DNA of 64,000 nucleotides, from the sequence record PZ809289.1, one strand, 5' to 3'. Within the stretch, counting starts at the first letter, position 1. The number at the start of each line of letters is the position of its first letter. Source of the stretch: a phage. The notes under the pieces are model-generated. The model did no database searches. It saw nothing but the letters and a program-made list of their open reading frames with translations, and had not been told where the DNA came from. This document shows positions 6,661 to 57,428 of the stretch, piece after piece. A program made the position numbers and the translations under genes.

Positions 6661-7398
6661 ATGGCAAAGGAATTCCATTATAATTACTTGACTGTAATAA
6701 AAACCCATAAGGCAAATTATTACTATGTAGGTAAACACTCCACTGATAATCTTTCAGACGGGTATTATGGAAGTGGTACGGTAGTTAAAAATATTTGTAA
6801 AAAGCATCCTTATAAAACTCGTATATTAGAATTCTTCGAATCTGAAGAAGAGGCGTATGCCGCCGAAATTCCTTTAGTTGAAAAGGCTAAATTAAAATAT
6901 GGTAAGCATTCTTTAAATTTTGCTGATGGCGGAAGAGGTAAAAAGAAAGGAACCAAATTATCTAATTTAACTAAACAGAAAATGTCTAGGTCTAGAAAAG
7001 GAGTTAAATGGAGCAAAGCCAGAATAGAAGCTTCTAAATTCACCACTTCTAATAAAGGTTTAAACCATTATTCCAATAGAATAGGATTTAGTGATGAGCA
7101 TAAAGCTAAAATAGGATTAGCCTCTAAAAAATTAAAAGGATTTAAACATAGCGCTGAAACCATAGAAAATATGAGTAACGCCAAAAAGGGCAAAAAGAAT
7201 CCCATGTACGGTAAAAAGGGCGCTATGGCAGGAAAACCTTCTCCTATAAGAAACGAATCTTGGAAATTTTACGATGAATTAAAACTCTTATGGGAAGAAT
7301 CCAATAAGCCTTCAGCATATATGTTTAAAAAGATAGCTATAAGCAAAGGTTATCCTAATTGCTCTTATAGAGGAGTTGTATTTAAATGGCAAGCTTGA
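6661..7398 (+). CDS. GIY-YIG homing endonuclease (Seg-like) with NUMOD3-type repeats
   Basis: YNYLTVIKTHKANYYYVGKHS GIY-YIG core; repeated NPMYGKKG-type motifs; inserted just upstream of tk. Confidence 0.75.
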   Translation: MAKEFHYNYLTVIKTHKANYYYVGKHSTDNLSDGYYGSGTVVKNICKKHPYKTRILEFFESEEEAYAAEIPLVEKAKLKYGKHSLNFADGGRGKKKGTKLSNLTKQKMSRSRKGVKWSKARIEASKFTTSNKGLNHYSNRIGFSDEHKAKIGLASKKLKGFKHSAETIENMSNAKKGKKNPMYGKKGAMAGKPSPIRNESWKFYDELKLLWEESNKPSAYMFKKIAISKGYPNCSYRGVVFKWQA

Positions 7399-28433: not shown

Positions 28434-29132
28434 ATGAAATTCTCTAAAGAAACTCTGAACATTCTGAAAAACTTCTCCAGTATTAACCCAGGTATCATGC
28501 TTAAGCCTGGTAACACTATTCTAACTCGTTCAGTAACGGGTGCAAGTTATGGTGAAGCTACTGTAAGCGATACCTTTGATATCGAAGCCGCAATCTATGA
28601 TTTGAACGGCTTCTTAAGTATTCTGTCATTGGTATCTGATAGTGCTGAAGTTTCGGTAAGTGAAGACCAAACCACCTTAATTATTAAAGACCAACGTTCA
28701 ACTATTAAATGGCCTATTGCCGACCCAAGTACAATTGCATTCCCAAGCAAAGCTATTCCATTCCCGGTGGCTGAAGTTATTTTTGACCTTAAAGCCGAAG
28801 ATTACCAACAGTTGATGCGTGTGTCCTCTGGATTGAGTATTGATACATTTGCTATCACTGTAGACAACGGTAAAATTGTAATCAATGGCTACAAACAAGT
28901 TGATGATAAGGACCTGGCACGTCCATTGTATTCCTTAGTGGTTGCAGACCATGATGGTCCTGAATTCAAATTCATTATCAACAAAACTAATATGAAAATG
29001 ATGCCTGCCGATTACCATGTATTGTTATGGGCTCGTGGTGAAGGTCAGGACGCTCGTTTCGCAGCCAAGTTTGAAGGTTCACAAGCTTCTTATGTATTGG
29101 CTATGGAAGCAGGCTCAAGCCACTCGTTCTAA
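28434..29132 (+). CDS. 45: Sliding clamp gp45
   Basis: MKFSKETLNILKNFSSINPGIMLKPGNTILTRSVTGASYGEA...AIYDLNGFLSILSLV... collinear with T4 gp45 (about 230 aa). Confidence 0.95.
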   Translation: MKFSKETLNILKNFSSINPGIMLKPGNTILTRSVTGASYGEATVSDTFDIEAAIYDLNGFLSILSLVSDSAEVSVSEDQTTLIIKDQRSTIKWPIADPSTIAFPSKAIPFPVAEVIFDLKAEDYQQLMRVSSGLSIDTFAITVDNGKIVINGYKQVDDKDLARPLYSLVVADHDGPEFKFIINKTNMKMMPADYHVLLWARGEGQDARFAAKFEGSQASYVLAMEAGSSHSF

Positions 29133-29710
29133 TGTATATATGTTATCATAATACGATAACCAACACTAAAACCAAGTGTGTCTATCATTATTTTGGTAGA
29201 CACCGTGTTACTGCTGAAGAATACTACGGTACAGGTAAGTTTGTTAAGAAATGCAAACGAGAAAATGCTATTACTCCAGGTCTTTGGGAGTTTTGTGTTG
29301 AAGTTATCCATACAGTGGATACGTTTAAAGAAGCCAAGATTATTGAAGAAGAGCTTGTTAAAGAAGGCATATCAAAATATGGTATCCTTTGTGTTAATAA
29401 GAATCCTGGTGGTGATGGCGGTGTGGATTACCACACCGAAGAATCTAAACGTAAAATGTCAGAAACTAGAACAGGAAAATCAAGAATATTTTCCGAAAGT
29501 CATAAAGAAAATTTAAGTAAACGAGCCAGAAAATACTCTGATGTTTGGTCCGAACCTGTATATTCAAATCTTAAAACCATTTGGCTGGAAACAGGTATGT
29601 TAAAACGCGGACGGTTTAGTACGCTTTTACAAAAATATGGGTATAATTATTCTGCGAATGAATTGAATAAAATTGTTAAACATTTTAATGAGGAAAATAA
29701 TAATGAGTAA
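29132..29710 (+). CDS. GIY-YIG-like homing endonuclease inserted between 45 and 44
   Basis: YICYHNT...VYHYFGRH core like the other Seg-like ORFs; NUMOD-like NPGGDGG...SRIFSESHKENLSKRA; TAATG coupling. Confidence 0.6.
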   Translation: MYICYHNTITNTKTKCVYHYFGRHRVTAEEYYGTGKFVKKCKRENAITPGLWEFCVEVIHTVDTFKEAKIIEEELVKEGISKYGILCVNKNPGGDGGVDYHTEESKRKMSETRTGKSRIFSESHKENLSKRARKYSDVWSEPVYSNLKTIWLETGMLKRGRFSTLLQKYGYNYSANELNKIVKHFNEENNNE

Positions 29711-31910: not shown

Positions 31911-34622
31911 ATGCAAGAATTCTATTTGACAGTCGAACAAATCGGTGATAATATTCTCGAACGTTACATCGATAAAAATGGTAACGAACGTAGTCGTGAA
32001 GTTCCTTACAAGCCTACAATGTTTATGCATGCTAATCCAGAGCAAGCCGTAAAATACATTGATATCTATGGTAAGGGTTGTGTTAAGAAAGAATTCGATT
32101 CTATGCGTGATGCATCCCAATGGATGAAACGTATGGATGATATGGGTCTCGAAGCCCTGGGTATGGACGACTATAAATTAGCCTATTTGTCTGATACCTA
32201 TCGTAAAGAAATCAGATATGATTCTTCTAAGATTCGTATTGCTAACTTCGACATCGAGGTAACATCTCCTGATGGATTCCCTGAACCAGCTCAGGCTAAA
32301 CATCCTATCGATGCCATTACCCACTACGACTCGATTGACGATAAATTCTATGTATTCGACCTTTTAGTTTCGCCTTATGGTACTGTCGAAGAGTGGTCGA
32401 TTAAAATCGCTGAGAAACTCCAAGACGAAGGCGGTGACGAAGTTCCACAAGAAATCATTGACAAAATCGTTTATCTTCCGTTTAATTCTGAAGAAGAAAT
32501 GATGCTTGAGTACTTGAATTTCTGGCAACAGAAAACTCCTGTGATTTTGACTGGATGGAACGTTGAGTCGTTTGACGTACCATACGTTTATAACCGTCTG
32601 AAAAATCTGTTCGGTGAGAACACTGCTAAGCGATTAAGCCCACATCGTAAAACTCGTGTTAAAGTTATCGAGAACATGTACGGTGCTCGTGAAATCATTA
32701 CATTGTTCGGTATCTCTGTTCTGGATTATATCGACCTGTATAAAAAATTCAGCTTTACCAACCAGCCTTCTTATTCTCTGGATTATGTTTCTGAATATGA
32801 ATTGAAAGTAGGTAAGTTGAAATATGATGGCCCAATCTCCAAGTTACGTGAGACGAACCACCAACGATATATTTCCTATAACATTATCGACGTATATCGT
32901 GTAGTGCAGATTGATATGAAGCGTCAGTTCATTCTTCTGAGTTTGGACATGGGTTATTATGCCAAGATGCAGATTCAGTCGGTGTTCAGCCCAATTAAGA
33001 CTTGGGACGCTATTATCTTTAATAGCCTTAAAGAACAAGGCAAGGTAATTCCACAAGCTCGTTCGCACGTGGTCCAACCTTATCCTGGTGCTTTCGTTAA
33101 GGAACCGATTCCTAACGCTTACAAATATGTAATGAGTTTCGACCTTACATCTCTGTACCCGAGTATCATTAGACAAGTGAATATAAGCCCAGAGACCATC
33201 GCAGGGACATTCGCTAACGCACCGATACATGAATATATTGCCGGAACAGCTCCGCGTCCTAGCGACACCTACAGTTGCTCTCCTAACGGCATGATGTATT
33301 ATAAAGACCGTGAAGGTGTGATTCCGACAGAAATCACAAAGGTATTCTTGCAGCGTAAAGAACATAAAGGTTACATGCTTGCAGCTCAACGTAATGGCGA
33401 GTTAATTAAAGAAGCATTGGAAAATCCTAATCTCTCAGTTGATAGTCCACTGGATATCGATTATCGTTTTGACTTCTCTGACGAAATCAAAGCCCAGATT
33501 AAAGCACTGTCAGCGCCTTCTTTAAGAGAAATGTTGAAGAAAGCCGAGCTCACTGAAGTTGCAGGTAACACTGCTCAGATTAACCGTAAGTTGCTTATCA
33601 ACTCCCTTTATGGTGCACTTGGTAACGTATGGTTCCGTTACTATGACCTCAGGAACGCAACTGCAATCACATTGTTTGGTCAAATGGCCCTCCAATGGAT
33701 TGAACGTAAGGTTAACGAATATCTGAATAGCGTGTGTAAGACTGAAAACCAGAAGTTCGTGCTCTACGGTGATACTGACTCCATTTATGTTAAGGCAGAT
33801 GCAATCATCAATAAAGTAGGCGAAGATAAATTCCGTGATACTAACCACTGGGTCGACTTCTTAGATAAATTTGCACGTGAACGTATGGAACCAGCTATTG
33901 ATGCAGGCTTCCGTGAGATGTGTGAGTACATGAACAACAAACAGCACTTGATGTTCATGGACCGAGAAGCTATCGCAGGTCCTCCACTTGGTTCTAAAGG
34001 CCTTGGTGGATTCTGGACAGGCAAGAAACGTTATGCACTTAACGTTTGGGACATGGAAGGTACTCGTTATGCTGAACCACACTTGAAAATCATGGGTCTC
34101 GAAACTCAGAAATCAAGTACACCTAAAGCAGTTCAGAAAGCTCTGAAGGAATGTATCCGTCGTATGCTTCAGGAAGGCGAGGCATCTTTGCAAGAATATT
34201 TCAAACAGTTTAATAAGGAATTTAACGAACTCGATTATGTAAGCATTGCAGCAGTATCCAGTGCTAACAACATCGAGAAATATAATGAAGGTGGATTCCC
34301 GGGTTCTAAATGTCCATACCACATCAAAGGTTGCTTAGCTTACATGCGTGCTTCTGCAGGTGATTTGACTATGCCTCGCATCGTTGATGGTGAAAAGGTA
34401 TATGTACTGCCACTTAAAGAAGGCAACCCGTTTGGTGAAGCTTGTATGGCATGGCCGTCAGGTATTGAACTTCCGGTTCAGATTCGTGACCAAGTCCTCC
34501 GTTGGATGGACTACAACGTACTGTTCCAAAAGACCTTTATCAAACCTCTGACCGGTTTTACTGAGTCTGCTAAAATCGACTACGAGAAAAAAGCAACATT
34601 ATTTGATATGTTCGACTTTTAA
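31911..34622 (+). CDS. 43: DNA polymerase gp43 (family B, with 3'-5' exonuclease)
   Basis: MQEFYLTVEQIGDNILERYIDKNGNERSREV... collinear with T4 gp43; Exo I FDIEV, pol motifs SLYPSII and YGDTDS; RBS AAGGAA; track ORF 31851 has 20-codon upstream extension. Confidence 0.95.
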   Translation: MQEFYLTVEQIGDNILERYIDKNGNERSREVPYKPTMFMHANPEQAVKYIDIYGKGCVKKEFDSMRDASQWMKRMDDMGLEALGMDDYKLAYLSDTYRKEIRYDSSKIRIANFDIEVTSPDGFPEPAQAKHPIDAITHYDSIDDKFYVFDLLVSPYGTVEEWSIKIAEKLQDEGGDEVPQEIIDKIVYLPFNSEEEMMLEYLNFWQQKTPVILTGWNVESFDVPYVYNRLKNLFGENTAKRLSPHRKTRVKVIENMYGAREIITLFGISVLDYIDLYKKFSFTNQPSYSLDYVSEYELKVGKLKYDGPISKLRETNHQRYISYNIIDVYRVVQIDMKRQFILLSLDMGYYAKMQIQSVFSPIKTWDAIIFNSLKEQGKVIPQARSHVVQPYPGAFVKEPIPNAYKYVMSFDLTSLYPSIIRQVNISPETIAGTFANAPIHEYIAGTAPRPSDTYSCSPNGMMYYKDREGVIPTEITKVFLQRKEHKGYMLAAQRNGELIKEALENPNLSVDSPLDIDYRFDFSDEIKAQIKALSAPSLREMLKKAELTEVAGNTAQINRKLLINSLYGALGNVWFRYYDLRNATAITLFGQMALQWIERKVNEYLNSVCKTENQKFVLYGDTDSIYVKADAIINKVGEDKFRDTNHWVDFLDKFARERMEPAIDAGFREMCEYMNNKQHLMFMDREAIAGPPLGSKGLGGFWTGKKRYALNVWDMEGTRYAEPHLKIMGLETQKSSTPKAVQKALKECIRRMLQEGEASLQEYFKQFNKEFNELDYVSIAAVSSANNIEKYNEGGFPGSKCPYHIKGCLAYMRASAGDLTMPRIVDGEKVYVLPLKEGNPFGEACMAWPSGIELPVQIRDQVLRWMDYNVLFQKTFIKPLTGFTESAKIDYEKKATLFDMFDF

Positions 34623-34624
34623 GT

Positions 34625-34654
34625 GTTTACATACCACAAGGAACGTGGTAGTAT
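34625..34654 (+). promoter_or_regulatory. Early promoter variant (PeSL-like)
   Basis: GTTTAC 34625-34630, TG-extended TAGTAT 34649-34654, CCTATCAAC box. Confidence 0.5.
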
Positions 34655-34684
34655 CCTTCCTATCAACTACATGAGGAAATTACA

Positions 34685-34921
34685 ATGGAAGCTTTAATCG
34701 TTAGTGCTGGTGTTTTAGGATTCGGTTCTCTGGTTATTATGTTCATCGGTTACTTTTTACCATGGATTCTGGCTCTTCTGCGAGGCACTCGTAGTAATGT
34801 AGGAATTTTCTTCCTTAATCTCCTGTTAGGCTGGACGATGATTGGTTGGGTAGTGGCTTTAATCTGGGCTATCGTCGCTGAACGTAAATCAAACGCACAA
34901 ATCATTATTGTTAAACAATGA
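34685..34921 (+). CDS. imm: Small inner-membrane protein at the T4 imm position (78 aa)
   Basis: Two transmembrane helices; located directly downstream of 43 as T4 imm is; identity by position and topology. Confidence 0.55.
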   Translation: MEALIVSAGVLGFGSLVIMFIGYFLPWILALLRGTRSNVGIFFLNLLLGWTMIGWVVALIWAIVAERKSNAQIIIVKQ

Positions 34922-35055
34922 AAATAATTGTTTTATTTCTTATAATGGCTGCCTTTACCGTTTATTGGGCAGTGGCAATTCCGCCAATGATTCCGACACT
35001 CATCATTGGATGGATTATTCTTATAGCACAAATTAAGTATAACTGTTTTAATTGA
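34918..35055 (+). CDS. Hypothetical hydrophobic peptide (45 aa)
   Basis: MKIIVLFLIMAAFTVYWAVAIPPMIPTLIIGWIILIAQI...; ATGA coupling; below track cutoff. Confidence 0.35.
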   Translation: MKIIVLFLIMAAFTVYWAVAIPPMIPTLIIGWIILIAQIKYNCFN

Positions 35056-35062
35056 GGATATT

Positions 35063-35563
35063 ATGAAAAAGTTAATTATCGCAATGAGTATGCTCCTATC
35101 AGGTTGCGCGGTCCAATATGGTGATACAGTTTCGGCCGATGAAGTTGGTAAAGCTCGTATCGCAGCTGAACAGAAACAATTCGATGGCGAAATGAAATTC
35201 CGTGCAGGTTCTGGACTTGTGTACACCCGAGCTAATAATCAATGCGGTAATAACTGTGCAAAATATGCTCAACAAGAAATCGAATTCCAACGTGAACAAG
35301 AGTCCAAGCGTGAAGCGGTACTAGCCAAACACCAGGCAGAAATGAAGCGTCAAGATGATTTGTACAAAAAGCAGAAACTGTATGCGATGTGCGTAAACCA
35401 TATCAATCTACAGATTTCCATCCACGAGGCTCGTTATTACGAAATGCTCGAAACCGAGAGCTTCGGTAAAGCTCGTGATTATAAGAAACAAATCGATAAG
35501 CTCAAGACCAAAGTACCGGCGGCAATAGAACAGTGTATTGAAATCGGTAAAGATAAGATTTAA
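35063..35563 (+). CDS. Predicted lipoprotein with coiled-coil (166 aa)
   Basis: Lipobox LLSGC after signal sequence MKKLIIAMSM. Confidence 0.55.
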   Translation: MKKLIIAMSMLLSGCAVQYGDTVSADEVGKARIAAEQKQFDGEMKFRAGSGLVYTRANNQCGNNCAKYAQQEIEFQREQESKREAVLAKHQAEMKRQDDLYKKQKLYAMCVNHINLQISIHEARYYEMLETESFGKARDYKKQIDKLKTKVPAAIEQCIEIGKDKI

Positions 35564-35623
35564 GCAATACCAATTTATTAAAAATAGTGTATAATGTACC
35601 TACATTCACTTGAGGAACAGATA

Positions 35624-37297
35624 ATGAAAAAGGTTGTTATTTTAGGCGCGGGTCTTGGCTCACGGTTGTATCCAATTACCAACGAAATCCCGAAGGTACT
35701 GGTTAACTACAAACAACATACTGTATTAAAACATTTGTATGATTTGTATAGTAATCAATCAGATGAAATTATTCTGGTTATTCACAGCAAATTTAACGAC
35801 CTCGTTAAAGGCTATATTAAATCCATTAACATGATTAATAGTGATAAGCCTAAATTCACTATTCGTAACGTTGATGTTGCCAATGGTTCGGCTCATGCTA
35901 TCGATTGCATTGCTGAAGATATCATTGGGCACAATGTCTTGTTTAACTGGTGTGATATTATTCCTGAAGGTCATAAAGTTGAGTGGGATACCGACTACTG
36001 TTATACCTATGGGACCGACTGTCGTTTTACATTTGAAGAACCGTACTTGCGTGAAATTGGTACCGGTGGTGGCGTAGTTGGCTTGTATCAGGTGGCTAAT
36101 TGGACAGGTTTCGACCGTTCTAATTATGGTGAAGACCTTGCTGACAACCTGGATTCAATGGTCCATTTGACTGAACGTAAGTTAGACTTTGTAGTTGATG
36201 TTGGTGACAAACTGAAACTGGCTAAGGCCCATGAAGATTCTGAAATTAACCGTGAATTTAATAAATTAGAGTTCACTGAGAATCTAGCTATTAAAGTACC
36301 TACAAACGAATTAGGTAAAGAAATCCAATCTAAAGAAATCAATTGGTACAATTCTATTGATTCTGAATTCGTTCCTAGCATTGTAGACTTTGCTCCAGGT
36401 GAATTCATTAAAATGGAACGTATCTTTGGTCGAACCATGGCAGATGCCTACCGGTTTATGTCTAAAGAAACTAAAGTCCTAATGGTTTATAAGGTTATTA
36501 GTGCATTACGTTCGTTCGGTGGAACTATCGATAATCCGTCCGATGAGCAATGGTATTCTGATGTTAAGAAAGAAGTATTGGACAAGGTCCTTATTCGTAA
36601 TGCTTCTATTGCCGGATTGATTGAAGGCTTTGCTCCACAGGGTATTACCCATGTTAACGACTTCAAGGTAGGCGACCCAGAAAAACTTCTTCGTCACGCC
36701 TTAGAAATTCTGTCTGAACATAAAGAACCGTACCAACTTATTCATGGCGACCCGCACTACAGTAATATTATGTTGTCGGACGAAGGTAATATTAAAATCA
36801 TCGACCCACGTGGTTATTTTGGTAATAGTTCTAAAGGCCCTGCGATTTATGATGAAGCTAAGGTGCTTTATTCTATCGATGGTTATGACAAATTTAACTC
36901 TGACCCTCTATGGGGTGGCTTAACTCGTAACGGAACTCGTGTATTCGTTGATATTGAAAAGGTTATGCCTTTAGATGATATTCCGATGTGTACATTTAAG
37001 CACAAGCTCTGGATTGCTGTTATCTGGATGGCATTGGCAGGTTACTTTAAAAATAACCCTCTGAAAGCTCTGGGCGCTTATTACAATGGGCTATATCAAC
37101 TGAGTGTGCTGCTGAAGCGGCATCCTCGTAAGCGTAAGCTTATCACAGGTGAATTCGTTGATGAAGTTCGCGACCCTATCACGGCTCAAATTATCACTCG
37201 TTGTCCTGATAAGTGGGTTTTGCTTGACCAGGAAACTGGTGTAAAATATAAACCTACAGGTTCTACCGAACTCCACAAACAATGGAAGAAAATTTAA
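35624..37297 (+). CDS. Bifunctional sugar-phosphate nucleotidyltransferase / APH-choline-kinase-like kinase fusion (557 aa)
   Basis: N-terminus KVVILGAGLGSRLYPITNEIPKVLV = G-x-G-x-R-x-P...PK NDP-sugar pyrophosphorylase signature; C-terminus HGDPHYSNIM...IIDPRG = Brenner kinase motif; RBS GAGGAA; track ATG 35594 lies inside TATAAT. Confidence 0.65.
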   Translation: MKKVVILGAGLGSRLYPITNEIPKVLVNYKQHTVLKHLYDLYSNQSDEIILVIHSKFNDLVKGYIKSINMINSDKPKFTIRNVDVANGSAHAIDCIAEDIIGHNVLFNWCDIIPEGHKVEWDTDYCYTYGTDCRFTFEEPYLREIGTGGGVVGLYQVANWTGFDRSNYGEDLADNLDSMVHLTERKLDFVVDVGDKLKLAKAHEDSEINREFNKLEFTENLAIKVPTNELGKEIQSKEINWYNSIDSEFVPSIVDFAPGEFIKMERIFGRTMADAYRFMSKETKVLMVYKVISALRSFGGTIDNPSDEQWYSDVKKEVLDKVLIRNASIAGLIEGFAPQGITHVNDFKVGDPEKLLRHALEILSEHKEPYQLIHGDPHYSNIMLSDEGNIKIIDPRGYFGNSSKGPAIYDEAKVLYSIDGYDKFNSDPLWGGLTRNGTRVFVDIEKVMPLDDIPMCTFKHKLWIAVIWMALAGYFKNNPLKALGAYYNGLYQLSVLLKRHPRKRKLITGEFVDEVRDPITAQIITRCPDKWVLLDQETGVKYKPTGSTELHKQWKKI

Positions 37298-37656
37298 TGC
37301 ATCTGTGTTTTGATATCGATAATACCATTACTCACTGGCAAGATGACCGTGATTACGAAAACTTTAAACCGGACACCGAAATGGTGTCCATGATTAATAA
37401 GCTTTATGATGAAGGGTACGAGATTACCTTGTTCACTGCCCGTGGTATGACTTCATGCGGCCCGGGTCGAATCTTGGTTGAAGTAGTTCCTGCATTAGTT
37501 AAGAACCTTGAAAAGATTGGATTGAAATATCACAATCTGCTTACACATAAGCCGAGTTATACTTTTATCATCGATGACCGAGCAATCCGTCCTGACCACT
37601 TTAAAGAAATGGTTCGTGAAGGAACTCTTGAAACCTATAAGGCATATCATCCGTGA
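37297..37656 (+). CDS. HAD-superfamily phosphatase (119 aa)
   Basis: Motif I FDIDNTIT (DxDxT), later T, K and IIDDR motifs; TAATG coupling. Confidence 0.6.
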   Translation: MHLCFDIDNTITHWQDDRDYENFKPDTEMVSMINKLYDEGYEITLFTARGMTSCGPGRILVEVVPALVKNLEKIGLKYHNLLTHKPSYTFIIDDRAIRPDHFKEMVREGTLETYKAYHP

Positions 37657-38189
37657 AACCAAAAATCATTGTTATCGACGGCCCGGATAATTCCGGGAAG
37701 TCTACTTTAATTGAATCACTTTTATCTGATAAGAAATATCGTCTTATTGATTTCCCTAAAAAGATTAATGGCAAATGCATTTCATTAGGGACTGATAATG
37801 ACAAGGCTTTAGTCGAGACGTTGTATAAGTTTTTAGACCCTAATTTTGTCTACATCTTAGACCGTGGGTATCCTAGTAATATTGTTTACTCTGGATTCCT
37901 TCGTGGTGAAATGGACCCTTATGTAGAACTGGAAGATTGGAAAGGGTTTAAATCTGAATTCAATATTATTGAGGTTATTTTAACCCGTAATCCACTGGAT
38001 AAAGACTTTGAAGATGACCTTATTAAATTAACCAAAGACGAGTTCAACCTAACTATCCGGCAATATGAAACATGTTTTGAAAACGTGTTTAAAATCTTAA
38101 ATCACGACGGCCATAATAACTTGCTTAACGTCGATATGGTAGAATTAAAACGTCTGAATGAATATATTGAAAATAAGGTGAATAAATGA
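37653..38189 (+). CDS. P-loop nucleoside/nucleotide kinase-like protein (178 aa)
   Basis: IVIDGPDNSGKSTL Walker A at residues 6-19, dTMP/dNK-kinase-like; GTG start overlapping upstream stop. Confidence 0.6.
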   Translation: MKPKIIVIDGPDNSGKSTLIESLLSDKKYRLIDFPKKINGKCISLGTDNDKALVETLYKFLDPNFVYILDRGYPSNIVYSGFLRGEMDPYVELEDWKGFKSEFNIIEVILTRNPLDKDFEDDLIKLTKDEFNLTIRQYETCFENVFKILNHDGHNNLLNVDMVELKRLNEYIENKVNK

Positions 38190-38884
38190 AACACATTACC
38201 GCTGTTAGTTTTGAAAACGCGTTTAAGCAAATGAACGAAGAAATCCTGGAAGCCCCACAGTTTGCAGTTGATTCTCGTATCGGCCGTTGTTATGAAATTG
38301 GTTCTGCTTCGGTAGAAGTACTGGATGCAAGCACCTATAAATTCACCGACCCTCGTATTAATCGTATCAACTATGATTATGCCGAATCTTTCTGGAAGTT
38401 TATGATTTCTGGTGGTACTGACGCCGCCGAAGCATTTAAGGAATACCCTAATGTTGCTAAGTTCATTGATAAGCCGAAAAGTGACGTATTGCCTGCAAAC
38501 TTCAACACTTTCTATGGACCTAGAATTGTGGCCCAACTCCCAGCCTTACTTAAAGAGCTTAAAGAGAAGCCTAACTCAAGACGAGTTGTGTTCCAAATTC
38601 TCCAAGAACAAGACCAAGCCCTCCTTGATTCTGACGAATCCTTAGAATATCCATGTACTGATTCAGTGACATATTATATTCGTGATGGACGTCTTTATGC
38701 ACATACCCATATGCGTTCACAGAACTGTGCTATTGTTATGCAGCTGGATTTCTATCTGCAGGGTAAACTGATGGCCTTTATTGCTGAACAGTGTGGTGTT
38801 GGTCTGGGTACGTATTCCCATACTATGGTTAGTGCACACGTATTTGAACGTGATTTTGACTACGTTCGAGGATTCCTGAAATGA
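38186..38884 (+). CDS. 42: dCMP hydroxymethylase-like enzyme (thymidylate-synthase fold)
   Basis: NSRRVVFQ..., YPCTDSVTYYIRD (catalytic Cys), HMRSQNCAIVMQLDF (Asp at the cytosine-specifying position) align with T4 gp42 MCTNTVQYLIRD...MRSNDVVFGFRND. Confidence 0.7.
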   Translation: MKHITAVSFENAFKQMNEEILEAPQFAVDSRIGRCYEIGSASVEVLDASTYKFTDPRINRINYDYAESFWKFMISGGTDAAEAFKEYPNVAKFIDKPKSDVLPANFNTFYGPRIVAQLPALLKELKEKPNSRRVVFQILQEQDQALLDSDESLEYPCTDSVTYYIRDGRLYAHTHMRSQNCAIVMQLDFYLQGKLMAFIAEQCGVGLGTYSHTMVSAHVFERDFDYVRGFLK

Positions 38885-39774
38885 GTTTGTTTATCGTTCC
38901 TATTTTCAGTATGCGTAGTTACGAAACAGGTGAATATGCCGTCCTTAAGGACGGCAATTTTCAACTCCATTTAAACCGTGCTTGCCCAGGTGATTATCTG
39001 GCTTATCCTAGAAATTCGAGCGATATCAAAGAATGCATTGAATTATTTCCTGAACTGAATTTTGTACCTCTTTGGTATAAAGAAAATGCTTATGAAACTC
39101 GTAAACATTTTTGGTCTGAAAATGAGTTCGTTGTTGATTCGTTAATCGAATACTATGACTGCTCAGGATTGGTAACCGATATCACAGGTTATGATGGTGC
39201 TCATACCGTACAATTCAACTTTAACATTACAATGGACCCTGAAGTTCCTCGTTATTACATCGATGAGTTTATTGATACCGACGTGGGTTCAGTTGAACGT
39301 TCGATTTATACTACAGTCTTGAATCAATGTCAGAAAGACGTCCTGGTGTCACGAGGTGCGTCCTCTGATAAGATTTTTGTAGACCAAAAGGTAATTAATC
39401 CGGCAGTAATTGAGCGTTACTCTGAAGGTCTAGCGCCTATTAAAATTGATGGTATTTTCCATCCATTCCGTATCTCTGATAAATGTTATCAATTCGAAAG
39501 AGTTGTAGACCAAGCTGCGGCTGAAGGTTCTCGCCTTTATATCACCGATCCGAATGATTCATTTAAGCGTGAAGACTATCGTCCTGATGTAGAGATTATT
39601 AAATTCAAACCGAGTAAGGTTGAATATTATCAGATTCTGAAATCAAGACCTCATATCATTTATCATGAGAATCCCGGTTTAGTATTCCATCCTGGTCTGG
39701 CTGAATTCATTTATTTCGGTGCCCACATCCATTCTGAGCACGAAATGCCAAGTTATGAGGACGTGGTCCTTTAA
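38881..39774 (+). CDS. Unassigned 297-aa protein in the beta-glucosyltransferase slot (candidate DNA-modifying transferase)
   Basis: ATGA coupling to hydroxymethylase gene; lies between 42 and uvsX; no similarity to T4 beta-gt recognised by eye. Confidence 0.5.
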   Translation: MSLFIVPIFSMRSYETGEYAVLKDGNFQLHLNRACPGDYLAYPRNSSDIKECIELFPELNFVPLWYKENAYETRKHFWSENEFVVDSLIEYYDCSGLVTDITGYDGAHTVQFNFNITMDPEVPRYYIDEFIDTDVGSVERSIYTTVLNQCQKDVLVSRGASSDKIFVDQKVINPAVIERYSEGLAPIKIDGIFHPFRISDKCYQFERVVDQAAAEGSRLYITDPNDSFKREDYRPDVEIIKFKPSKVEYYQILKSRPHIIYHENPGLVFHPGLAEFIYFGAHIHSEHEMPSYEDVVL

Positions 39775-39851
39775 CGCTGTAAATGTGAAGTGATATAATT
39801 ACCCTATCTTAAAACGTGAGTAAAATATAATGATGCCTATGGAAAAATATA

Positions 39852-41024
39852 ATGTCTGATTTAAAATCCCGTTTGATTAAAGCTTCTACTTCTAAAATGA
39901 CCGCCGACCTGACCAAATCTAAATTGTTTAATGGTCGTGACGAAGTTCCTACTCGTATCCCTATGCTGAATATTGCATTGGGCGGTGCGTTGAATGCAGG
40001 CTTACAATCAGGTTTGACAATCTTTGCTGCTCCATCTAAACACTTTAAAACGTTGTTTGGACTTACCATGGTTGCGGCATATATGAAGAAATATCCAGAC
40101 GCAATTTGTTTGTTCTATGACTCTGAGTTTGGTGCTTCAGAATCTTATTTCCGTTCGATGGGTGTTGATTTGGAACGTGTGGTTCATACACCAATCCAGT
40201 CAGTCGAACAGCTTAAAGTTGATATGACCAACCAGTTAGAAGAAATTACTCGTGGCGAAAAGGTTATTATCTTTATCGACTCCATTGGTAACACTGCTTC
40301 TAAGAAAGAAACCGAAGATGCTTTGAACGAGAAAGTTGTAGGTGATATGACCCGTGCTAAGTCACTGAAATCTCTGTTCCGTATCGTAACACCTTATCTG
40401 ACTATCAAAGATATCCCTTGTGTAGCAATCAACCACACGGCTATGGAAATTGGTGGAATGTACCCTAAAGAGATTATGGGTGGTGGTACTGGTATTCTGT
40501 ACTCTGCTTCTACCGTGTTCTTTATCTCTAAACGTCAGGTTAAAGATGGTACTGAGCTCACTGGTTATGACTTCACACTGAAGGCCGAGAAATCTCGTAC
40601 GGTTAAAGAGAAATCAACGTTCCCGATTACAGTGAACTTCGAAGGTGGTATCGACCCATTCAGTGGATTGCTTGAAATGGCTACTGATATTGGCTTTGTC
40701 GTGAAACCTAAAGCTGGCTGGTATAATCGTGCATTCCTTGACGAAACCACAGGCGAAATGGTTCAAGAAGAAAAAGCATGGCGTGCTAAAGCTACCGATT
40801 GTGTCGAGTTCTGGGGACCGCTGTTTAAACATGCCCCGTTCCGTGAAGCAATCGAGAATAAGTATAAGCTCGGTGCAATTAATTCTATTAAAGAAGTTGA
40901 CGATGCAGTGAACGACCTTATTAACTCTCGTGTCTCTAAGAACGTTGCTGTTAAATTAGGTGGTAATGCCCAAAGCGCCGCTGATATCGAAAACGATTTG
41001 GAAGAGATGAATTTAGATGACTGA
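39852..41024 (+). CDS. uvsX: Recombinase UvsX (RecA-like)
   Basis: 390 aa; RecA core with Walker A; collinear with T4 UvsX. Confidence 0.9.
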   Translation: MSDLKSRLIKASTSKMTADLTKSKLFNGRDEVPTRIPMLNIALGGALNAGLQSGLTIFAAPSKHFKTLFGLTMVAAYMKKYPDAICLFYDSEFGASESYFRSMGVDLERVVHTPIQSVEQLKVDMTNQLEEITRGEKVIIFIDSIGNTASKKETEDALNEKVVGDMTRAKSLKSLFRIVTPYLTIKDIPCVAINHTAMEIGGMYPKEIMGGGTGILYSASTVFFISKRQVKDGTELTGYDFTLKAEKSRTVKEKSTFPITVNFEGGIDPFSGLLEMATDIGFVVKPKAGWYNRAFLDETTGEMVQEEKAWRAKATDCVEFWGPLFKHAPFREAIENKYKLGAINSIKEVDDAVNDLINSRVSKNVAVKLGGNAQSAADIENDLEEMNLDD

Positions 41025-56747: not shown

Positions 56748-57428
56748 ATGAAATATATAACATACTTAACAATATATGATGGAACAAAGCTACCTCCATT
56801 TTATATAGGCTCCACTTATTTGGATAAACACCTAGCTGGATATCATGGTTCGGTGACATCCAAAAAGTACGAAGACCTATATAATAAAGAGCTTGAGGAA
56901 CATCCTGAATTATTTGATAGCATGATTTTGGGTGAATTTGAAACCAGAGAAGAAGCTACATTTTGCGAGCTTTATTACCAAAAACTTTATAACGTGGTCA
57001 AAAGTAATTTATTTTTCAATATGGCATATGCTACCGTTGACGGATGTTTTGGTATGGATGTTTGTAAAGAAAATAATCCATTTTGGAACCATAAACATTC
57101 TGAAAGTACATTAAAAGCCCAATCTGATGCTAAGATTGGAGAGCTTAATCCTATGTACGGGACTAAACGCCCTGAGCATTCTAAAGCAATGTCAAAAGAA
57201 AATAATCCTTTTTATGATAAGAAACACACCGAAGAAGGATTGGTTAAGTGTGGAATTAAAAATCGTAAAAGTCCGGTATGGGAATATGAATCTGCTTTAG
57301 AAAAATTATGGTTAGAATTAGATAAACCTAAATTGGCTATGTTTATGCGAGAAAGTATTAAACGCGGTTTTCCTGAAGGTTCATACAAAAATATTTTACG
57401 ACAATTCGAGAGAAGACATAATGATTGA
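56748..57428 (+). CDS. GIY-YIG homing endonuclease (Seg-like), paralog of 23983
   Basis: MKYITYLTIYDGTKLPPFYIGSTYLDKH...; NUMOD3 repeats NPFWNHKHSE, NPMYGTKRPEHS, NPFYDKKHTEEG; directly upstream of gene 39. Confidence 0.75.
   Translation: MKYITYLTIYDGTKLPPFYIGSTYLDKHLAGYHGSVTSKKYEDLYNKELEEHPELFDSMILGEFETREEATFCELYYQKLYNVVKSNLFFNMAYATVDGCFGMDVCKENNPFWNHKHSESTLKAQSDAKIGELNPMYGTKRPEHSKAMSKENNPFYDKKHTEEGLVKCGIKNRKSPVWEYESALEKLWLELDKPKLAMFMRESIKRGFPEGSYKNILRQFERRHND

Follow-up and report, generated by a model that had tools for sequence, protein, structure and literature searches.

Systems described earlier that are close to the genes analyzed here include the 42/alpha-gt/beta-gt system of T4 and the arabinosylation clusters of RB69 and similar phages. 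In T4, gp56 excludes dC, a thymidylate synthase (TS)-fold enzyme (gp42) acts on dCMP by folate-dependent hydroxymethylation, and a sugar transferase then acts; because host uridine diphosphate (UDP)-glucose is used, T4 has no need for sugar-activation genes. DNA from RB69 and from Acinetobacter phage DLP3 contains mono- and poly-arabinosylated 5-hydroxycytosine (5hoC), with the sugar ether-linked directly to C5 (PMC13326640). RB69 gp48 and DLP3 gp80 convert dCMP to 5-hydroxy-dCMP (5hodCMP), with O2 as the oxygen source, and both bind flavin (PMC13326640). We analyzed a five-gene operon between imm and uvsX, the same slot as in T4 and RB69, in a stretch of 64,000 nucleotides of phage DNA (sequence record PZ809289.1; hereafter the window). 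We conclude, with a probability of about 80%, that this operon encodes, in its Dhakavirus form, the pathway by which 5-O-arabinosyl-5-hydroxycytosine takes the place of cytosine in virion DNA.

The pathway itself is not new, because it was described in related phages in 2025-2026 with Dhakaviruses explicitly included. Lee et al. name them among the genera that carry the cluster in syntenic form (PMC13326640). RB69, a Mosigvirus, has the same five proteins in the same polymerase-uvsX slot (gp45-gp55, plus gp3), and gp56 as well (PMC6024577, PMC13326640). It also has an isomerase (gp55), a U32-family protein (gp50), gp49 and a second arabinosyltransferase (gp3), none of which is in the window, and its DNA is mono- and di-arabinosylated. 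Its first transferase, GT1 or 'arabinosyltransferase 1', is a single protein that is written either gp46:47 or gp47:46. Shewanella phage Thanatos (TH1_060-065; PMC12838424) has a single GT1-type transferase, is reported to be mono-arabinosylated, and encodes the same five proteins, 42-71% identical to those in the window. The five-protein set is also in Serratia phage CHI14 and Acinetobacter phage Kimel. The E. coli phage HY126 was likewise shown to make arabosylated 5hoC; its Afh system, known here from the account of He et al. given in PMC13326640 and from PDB 9iqu/9iqc/9ir2, has a flavin-dependent TS-fold hydroxylase and two enzymes, the bifunctional AfhE and the phosphatase AfhF, that make UDP-arabinose from arabinose 5-phosphate. 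The near identity of the HY126 hydroxylase to that of RB69 suggests that HY126 is a Mosigvirus.

The window belongs to a Dhakavirus, a T4-like Escherichia phage of the Tevenvirinae. Over the operon region it is 99.4% identical to LHE83, 99.3% to QL01 and WG01, and 97.5% to Bp7. It maps onto QL01 from ~59.6 kb down to position 1, and then wraps to the rIIB end of the QL01 record. The listing of open reading frames (ORFs) in the window has five on the + strand between imm and uvsX that form the operon, which we call w1 to w5 in 5' to 3' order (genes i to v of an earlier reading of the letters and ORFs only, hereafter the sequence-only reading). The features are as follows.

34685-34921: imm, identity from the Bp7 RefSeq annotation
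35624-37297, + strand: w1, predicted bifunctional sugar-activating enzyme, AfhE-like (Pfam, PHROG, homology); second candidate start at 35594
~35624-36265, + strand: w1 N-terminal sugar-1-phosphate nucleotidyltransferase domain
~36266-37294, + strand: w1 C-terminal APH/choline-kinase-like kinase domain
37297-37656, + strand: w2, predicted small HAD-family phosphatase, AfhF-like (motifs, homology); second candidate start at 37282
37653-38189, + strand: w3, thymidylate-kinase-like P-loop kinase, RB69 gp45 homologue (homology, family profile)
38186-38884, + strand: w4, predicted TS-fold flavin- and O2-dependent 5-hydroxy-dCMP synthase (homology, active-site signature)
38881-39774, + strand: w5, compact GT-B glycosyltransferase candidate, 'arabinosyltransferase 1' (GT1) (homology, predicted fold)
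39852-41024: uvsX, identity from the Bp7 RefSeq annotation
46280-46801, + strand: gp56 dCTPase/dUTPase (72% identical to gp56 as annotated in Serratia phage CHI14)

Each of the five proteins has a homologue in RB69. By tblastn, w4 corresponds to gp48 (79% identity), w5 to gp47:46 (64-70%), w2 to gp51 (62%), w1 to gp53:52 (41-44%) and w3 to gp45 (37%). The usual order in the other clusters is fusion protein, phosphatase, (U32 protein), hydroxylase, GT1, kinase; here the kinase gene lies between the phosphatase and hydroxylase genes. The kinase gene of RB69 is downstream of GT1, and Thanatos keeps both a U32-family gene (TH1_065) and the usual order of TS-fold enzyme, GT1 and kinase, in contrast to the altered order and missing U32 gene of the window.

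The sequence-only reading had proposed that the five genes are joined by start/stop overlaps at 37297, 37653, 38186 and 38881, and all of the ORFs and overlaps were recovered. At the w1/w2 junction (TAATG, 37295-37299), the w1 stop codon TAA (37295-37297) and the w2 ATG (37297) have one base in common. Direct reading of the other junctions gave overlaps of GTGA at 37653 (w2/w3) and ATGA at both 38186 (w3/w4) and 38881 (w4/w5). The statement that T4 has only 42 and beta-gt in this slot was correct for those two genes and omitted segA, which is also there. We favor the w1 start at 35624, which gives the 557 amino acids of the sequence-only reading, over that at 35594, because the ATG at 35624 is preceded by a GAGGAA Shine-Dalgarno sequence and is where the PHROG profile alignment opens, and because a perfect TATAAT (35590-35595) overlaps the upstream ATG. 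The QL01 RefSeq annotation gives w1 as 557 and w2 as 119 amino acids, with the same starts as 35624 and 37297. The longest-ORF starts (35594 for w1 and 37282 for w2) are probably not the true ones, and the 557- and 119-residue proteins are the likely products. The motifs that had been quoted for w1, w2 and w3 were all present in the translations.

The five ORFs are real genes and not chance ORFs, because the 5.2-kb region is covered to 80% or more in 52 phage records, the w3 kinase is found in 344 phage records, and w5 has homologues in 117 protein clusters. The GC content of the operon (0.38-0.40) is like that of its surroundings in the window and gives no sign of recent foreign origin. A scan of 34500-40200 for promoters and terminators found 18 sites, compared to 17.5 expected from shuffled sequence, and thus no excess.

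Evidence concerning the modified base comes from w4. The sequence-only reading had recognized a TS fold with the catalytic Cys and the Asp that specifies cytosine, and an alignment by ThyA position confirmed these features (Pfam Thymidylat_synt, 52.6 bits; cut-off 24.3). It had gone on to identify w4 as a gp42-type hydroxymethylase and the base as 5-hydroxymethylcytosine (hmC), and this part was not borne out. The alignment included E. coli ThyA, T4 gp42, RB69 gp48, the enzymes from Thanatos, Kimel and CHI14, and the phage's own bona fide thymidylate synthase, and the comparison was made at the 13 ThyA active-site positions that Lee et al. had chosen (PMC13326640). At 13 of the 13 positions w4 was the same as RB69 gp48. 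In ThyA numbering, w4 keeps C146 and has L143E, D169N, N177D and W80A, and so combines Asn169, Cys146 and Asp177, whereas T4 gp42 keeps D169 and W80. Replacement of E. coli ThyA Asp169 by Asn is the diagnostic mark of 5hodCMP synthase activity (PMC13326640). w4 is 79% identical to RB69 gp48, an experimentally verified 5-hydroxy-dCMP synthase, vs 25% to T4 gp42. A sequence search of the PDB gave the HY126 structures 9iqu/9iqc/9ir2 at E 1.5e-125 (~79% identical) vs 4.7e-6 for T4 gp42 (1b49). By its active-site signature, w4 is a predicted hydroxylase (5-hydroxy-dCMP synthase), not a hydroxymethylase.

If w4 were instead a gp42-type dCMP hydroxymethylase, the DNA would contain hmC with a non-glucose group on the hydroxymethyl oxygen. 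The TS fold, catalytic Cys and cytosine-specifying Asp (ThyA-177) are all as in gp42, and arabinosyl-hmC was the interpretation of the original RB69 paper (PMC6024577). However, later work calls the arabinosyl-hydroxymethyl assignment in RB69 erroneous, and Asn and Ala occupy the ThyA-169 and Trp80 positions where gp42 has Asp and Trp. w4 is also far closer to enzymes with demonstrated 5hodCMP synthesis (79% identity) than to gp42 (25%), and these identities together with the signature led us to drop a reading that we consider scarcely credible.

The operon is accompanied by a gp56 gene. The sequence-only reading had placed a gp56 dCTPase at 46280 and argued that dC is probably excluded from the DNA. 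That gene (Pfam dUTPase_2, 28 bits; cut-off 22.9) corresponds to QL01 gp027, 'gp56 dCTPase', and the identity to CHI14 gp56 given above agrees with the claim. The cluster lies in the conserved slot between DNA polymerase/imm and uvsX, in a genome that also has gp56.

The predicted sugar-activating enzymes are w1 and w2. The sequence-only reading had noted a nucleotidyltransferase fold and a kinase in w1, which are the two domains of an AfhE-type protein, and each scored over its Pfam cut-off (NTP_transferase, 34.3 bits, cut-off 21.2; APH, 26.0 bits, cut-off 23.2). phrog_4098 covers the full-length protein (E 5.9e-269), and the motifs GAGLGSRLYPIT...PKVL, HGDPHYSNIM and IIDPRG are present in the translation. 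Full-length identity is 41-45% to RB69 gp53:52, Thanatos TH1_060 and the CHI14 and Kimel homologues, and we regard w1 as probably AfhE-like on this basis. w2 had been called a HAD phosphatase, which its motifs (FDIDNTIT, with the DIDNT motif I of the DxDxT type, and IIDD) and its identity to RB69 gp51 (62%) and the CHI14 homologue (68%) support; these are also the properties of an AfhF-type phosphatase. A match to the NCBIfam model TIGR01689, 'capsule biosynthesis phosphatase' (1.9e-14), was under the cut-off.

Functions were assigned to w1 and w2 through homology to the HY126 enzymes as they are described in PMC13326640. There, AfhE is said to convert arabinose 5-phosphate to the 1,5-bisphosphate, from which AfhF takes off the 5-phosphate, and the N-terminal domain of AfhE then makes UDP-arabinofuranose (account of He et al.). 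On this basis, w1 is predicted to convert D-arabinose 5-phosphate to arabinofuranose 1,5-bisphosphate and to make UDP-arabinofuranose from arabinofuranose 1-phosphate and UTP, and w2 is predicted to convert the 1,5-bisphosphate to the 1-phosphate. The sequence-only reading was right that these two genes activate a sugar; its order of steps, phosphatase and then anomeric kinase, does not fit the HY126 order, which has biochemical support, of C1 kinase, C5 phosphatase and uridylylation, as far as that order is summarized in PMC13326640. The superseded order matches an older scheme in Table 1 of Lee et al. (PMC13326640).

The proposed route has the same logic as the ADP-heptose pathway (GmhA/HldE/GmhB), namely an isomerase, an anomeric sugar-phosphate kinase, a distal-phosphate phosphatase and a nucleotidyltransferase. 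The kinase and nucleotidyltransferase of that pathway are also in one protein (HldE), like those of w1. The HldE kinase domain is ribokinase-like, in contrast to the APH-like domain of w1, and the sugar and nucleotide also differ, making this an analogy and not a homology.

Several genes of the related systems were not found. In tblastn searches (E up to 1) of the window and the complete QL01 genome, RB69 gp3, gp55 and gp50 and the T4 proteins alpha-gt and beta-gt all failed to give a match. As a control, the Kimel locus gave strong matches for gp3 (two matches, 1e-99 and 1e-89) and gp55. Thus, neither the window nor QL01 has a phage-encoded arabinose-5-phosphate isomerase (SIS domain), a second or third transferase of the kind found in poly-arabinosylating variants (RB69 gp3, DLP3 gp76/77, 'Aat'), or the T4-type combination of an Asp169/Trp80 enzyme and an alpha- or beta-glucosyltransferase. 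There was no 'glycosyltransferase' product in the QL01 RefSeq annotation, and Pfam scans of the other large unknown ORFs of the window found no glycosyltransferase. The suggestion of the sequence-only reading that cytosine carries a sugar other than glucose is in agreement with the homology to RB69-type arabinosyl clusters and with the failure to find either conventional glucosyltransferase gene, which it had listed as evidence to look for against itself.

The missing isomerase raises the question of whether Dhakaviruses attach a different pentose or another sugar to the same base. Besides the lack of a gp55 homologue in the window and QL01, this idea would fit the divergence of w1, whose identity to each of the arabinosylating relatives examined is no more than 41-45%. 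There are also precedents: Rhizobium phage RL38J1 has galactose and glucose on 5-hydroxycytosine (PMC13326640), and UDP-xylose pyrophosphorylase activity in vitro has been reported for a Thanatos protein. On the other hand, w5 and w2 share 62-70% identity with their RB69 and CHI14 counterparts, and w1 has the same architecture as AfhE. E. coli has its own route to arabinose 5-phosphate, through KdsD/GutQ, and a phage isomerase would therefore be accessory and dispensable. We consider a different sugar improbable, and arabinose the likely one.

The candidate for attaching the arabinose is w5. The sequence-only reading saw no recognizable motif in this 297-amino-acid protein and proposed it as the candidate transferase, and the model and homology bear this out. 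w5 gave no Pfam or NCBIfam match, and matched only an unnamed PHROG; it is 64-70% identical to RB69 gp47:46. An AlphaFold model from a 34-sequence alignment had a mean confidence (pLDDT) of 94.6 and a predicted TM-score (pTM) of 0.89. Foldseek comparison of the model to the PDB found UDP-GlcNAc 2-epimerases and GT-B transferases (MshA 3c4q, HepE 4xso, 7qsg), with E ~1e-6 and TM-scores of 0.5-0.57. The structural top match of RB69 gp46:47 is also MshA 3c4q (Lee et al., PMC13326640). Because of the GT-B model and this shared top match, we confidently regard w5 as a GT1-type protein and the candidate base-proximal transferase, with a predicted GT-B fold unrelated in sequence to the T4 transferases. 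The GT1 family is acidic: w5 has an isoelectric point (pI) of 4.9 and a net charge of -19, and the family median pI is 5.2, compared to 9.05 for T4 beta-gt. This acidity may be a weak hint, suggestive only, of a nucleotide substrate.

The fifth protein, w3, appears to be a nucleotide kinase. It has a P-loop motif (GPDNSGKST), and is 37-43% identical to the RB69, Thanatos, CHI14 and Kimel kinases. Searches returned weak matches to thymidylate and cytidylate kinases. Because the Pfam and NCBIfam thymidylate kinase models scored under their cut-offs, we regard w3 as a divergent relative of thymidylate kinase and not an orthologue. The invariant residues of its family are the P-loop GxDxxGK, D70-R71 (as in the DRY motif of thymidylate kinase), N76 and D121. 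Compared to the PDB, the family profile matched YorR first, followed by many thymidylate kinases, of which the S. aureus enzyme aligned with it over residues 2-178, the full length. The P-loop with Asp, the DR motif and the full-length profile match are those of a thymidylate kinase-like nucleoside monophosphate (NMP) kinase, here encoded inside the cluster. The 344 phage records with w3 homologues are from T4-like phages of Escherichia, Acinetobacter, Klebsiella, Serratia and other hosts. A word-indexed search for homologues gave 9 matches and was replaced by an exhaustive HMMER search, which found 61 representative clusters among 1.84 billion proteins, indicating that w3 belongs to a narrow phage family.

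The sequence-only reading had offered two functions for this gene, a nucleotide kinase and a DNA-base kinase. The thymidylate-kinase-like profile upheld the first. The second, a kinase that acts on 5-hydroxymethyldeoxyuridine (5-hmdU) in DNA, was tried and rejected. In an hhalign comparison to phage M6 gp54, which we take to be the 5-hmdU DNA kinase (5-HMUDK) candidate, 29 P-loop columns of the w3 family aligned and nothing beyond, a weak test given the presumed identity of M6 gp54; the family profile fits thymidylate kinases. The most likely role that we infer for w3 is that of an NMP kinase for modified dCMP.

Distant relatives of w3 are fused to other domains: a TS-fold domain (P0177), HhH-GPD domains (P0158 and P0159) and a UDG-like domain (P0178). 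P0177 (L014:268-1251) consists of a w3-like kinase and a TS-fold domain that keeps Asp169 together with Asp177, the hydroxymethyl-dCMP type. This natural fusion ties the w3 kinase family to nucleotide-level products of TS-fold enzymes.

The properties of w3 and w5 are relevant to the order of the reactions. The same products could be made before replication if w5 arabinosylated 5-hydroxy-dCMP, w3 was the dedicated kinase for the bulky arabinosyl-5hodCMP, and the polymerase incorporated the glycosylated dNTP. A gp1-type dNMP kinase of RB69 already phosphorylates 5hodCMP (PMC13326640), leaving the conserved extra kinase without an obvious job, and w3 is thymidylate-kinase-like. The kinase, GT1 and TS-fold genes occur together even in RL38J1, where the sugar differs, and GT1 enzymes were inactive on 5hoC-DNA in vitro (PMC13326640). 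If true, the pre-replicative order would account for the conserved second nucleotide kinase that accompanies GT1 and the hydroxylase in all clusters of this kind, as well as for the inactivity of GT1 on 5hoC-DNA and the strong acidity of its family. The charge argument is weak, however, given that T4 alpha-gt has a pI of 6.1. In addition, glycosylation is post-replicative in the T-even paradigm, the second and third transferases of DLP3 act on DNA (PMC13326640), and the HhH-GPD and UDG-like fusions among distant w3 relatives point to action at the level of DNA. We consider this order unlikely.

The sequence of reactions that we propose, in which arabinose is added after incorporation of the base, takes its chemistry by homology from experiments with RB69, DLP3 and HY126, the last as summarized in PMC13326640; the genes, the active-site signature, the predicted w5 fold and the absences come from the present analysis. 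gp56 would convert dCTP to dCMP, removing dCTP and feeding w4, which would convert dCMP to 5-hydroxy-dCMP using flavin and O2 in place of folate. The diphosphate would be made by dNMP kinase activity, for which the candidates are a T4 gp1-like kinase, whose gene lies outside the window, and, most likely, w3. Host NDP kinase would make the triphosphate, and the phage polymerase would incorporate 5-hydroxy-dCTP. The phage lacks an isomerase, and we therefore predict that D-arabinose 5-phosphate is supplied by the host isomerases KdsD/GutQ. The kinase domain of w1 would phosphorylate it at C1, w2 would then take off the 5-phosphate, and the nucleotidyltransferase domain of w1 would form UDP-arabinofuranose. 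Finally, w5 would attach arabinose to the 5-hydroxyl. Because no second transferase was found, the product is predicted to be mono-arabinosylated only, as is reported for Thanatos with its single transferase, compared to the mono- and di-arabinosylated DNA of RB69.

Several points weigh against this proposal. The whole-genome absences were tested in QL01, which is 99.3% identical over the cluster, and not in the remaining genome of this phage. A literature search, which did not include Mahler 2025 and He 2026, found no published chemical analysis of Dhakavirus DNA. At ~37-45% identity to characterized relatives, w1 and w3 could differ from them in donor or substrate specificity, and the missing phage arabinose-5-phosphate isomerase is one arabinose marker fewer. 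Lee et al. did not reconstitute GT1 activity on 5hoC-containing DNA, and their data do not distinguish a first arabosyl transfer at the mononucleotide level from one at the DNA level (PMC13326640).

Related clusters encode a U32-family protein that Dhakaviruses and Lazarusviruses lack. This protein (RB69 gp50, L002:8493-9662; Thanatos TH1_065, L010:6560-7696) belongs to the Peptidase_U32 family (42 bits; cut-off 22.4) and is 79-83% identical among RB69, Thanatos and CHI14, making it better conserved than the hydroxylase. Lee et al. label this type of cluster gene 'sugar or heterocycle reductase' (PMC13326640). U32 proteins include RlhA (5-hydroxycytidine in 23S rRNA) and TrhP (5-hydroxyuridine in tRNA), as well as UbiU/V, which carry out O2-independent hydroxylation with prephenate as the oxygen donor. 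The U32 cluster protein could be an anaerobic cytosine-5 hydroxylase that serves as a backup to the TS-fold enzyme, which depends on O2.

A distant version of the pathway was seen in a metagenomic phage contig (GCA_034680565.1/JAXOUH010003483.1, 4616-10512). It encodes a TS-fold protein with Asn169/Asp177, a fusion of a w3-like kinase with an HhH-GPD (DNA-glycosylase-like) domain, an AfhE-like protein of 624 amino acids, a 123-amino-acid ORF and an SIS isomerase that shares 49% identity with RB69 gp55. It also encodes a flavin mononucleotide (FMN) reductase, which fits a flavin-dependent hydroxylase. No GT1 was seen within the 10.8 kb examined.

Near the operon, the interval between imm and w1 has an ORF at 35063-35563 (+ strand; 166 amino acids) whose N-terminus is lipoprotein-like (MKKLIIAMSMLLSGC); it is at roughly the position of the RB69 isomerase gene. 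It had no significant Pfam match, and the RB69 and T4 regions compared did not contain a homologue. Just upstream of it, 34945-35052 matches the small RB69 gp54 ORF. Elsewhere in the window, three + strand ORFs (6661-7398, 29132-29710 and 56748-57428) contain NUMOD3 motifs, which are typical of homing endonucleases. One of the three is between the sliding-clamp and clamp-loader genes, a location to be compared with that of a 192-amino-acid 'hypothetical protein' of Bp7.

The public names of the operon genes are misleading or empty. w1 and w5 are named 'hypothetical protein', and w2 is named 'phosphoheptose isomerase' (phrog_1238), a misnomer for a HAD phosphatase. w3 is 'thymidylate kinase' or 'AAA domain-containing protein', and w4 is 'thymidylate synthase' or 'dCMP hydroxymethylase'. 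The main value of our analysis is corrective: the database names mislead, and the predicted base is 5-hydroxycytosine, not hmC.

With sugar-decorated cytosines, T4-like phages can evade restriction enzymes, DNA glycosylases and CRISPR-Cas, and the decoration also decides which modification-dependent defences still reach the phage. This matters for the choice of therapeutic coliphages, candidates for which include Dhakaviruses such as LHE83, QL01 and JS98. With five genes, and without the isomerase, the U32 protein or a second transferase, the Dhakavirus cluster is a minimal version that occurs in nature. It would be a convenient system for determining the role of the extra kinase and whether the first sugar is added to the nucleotide or to DNA, and would also suit the question of how an O2-dependent hydroxylase works in the anoxic gut.

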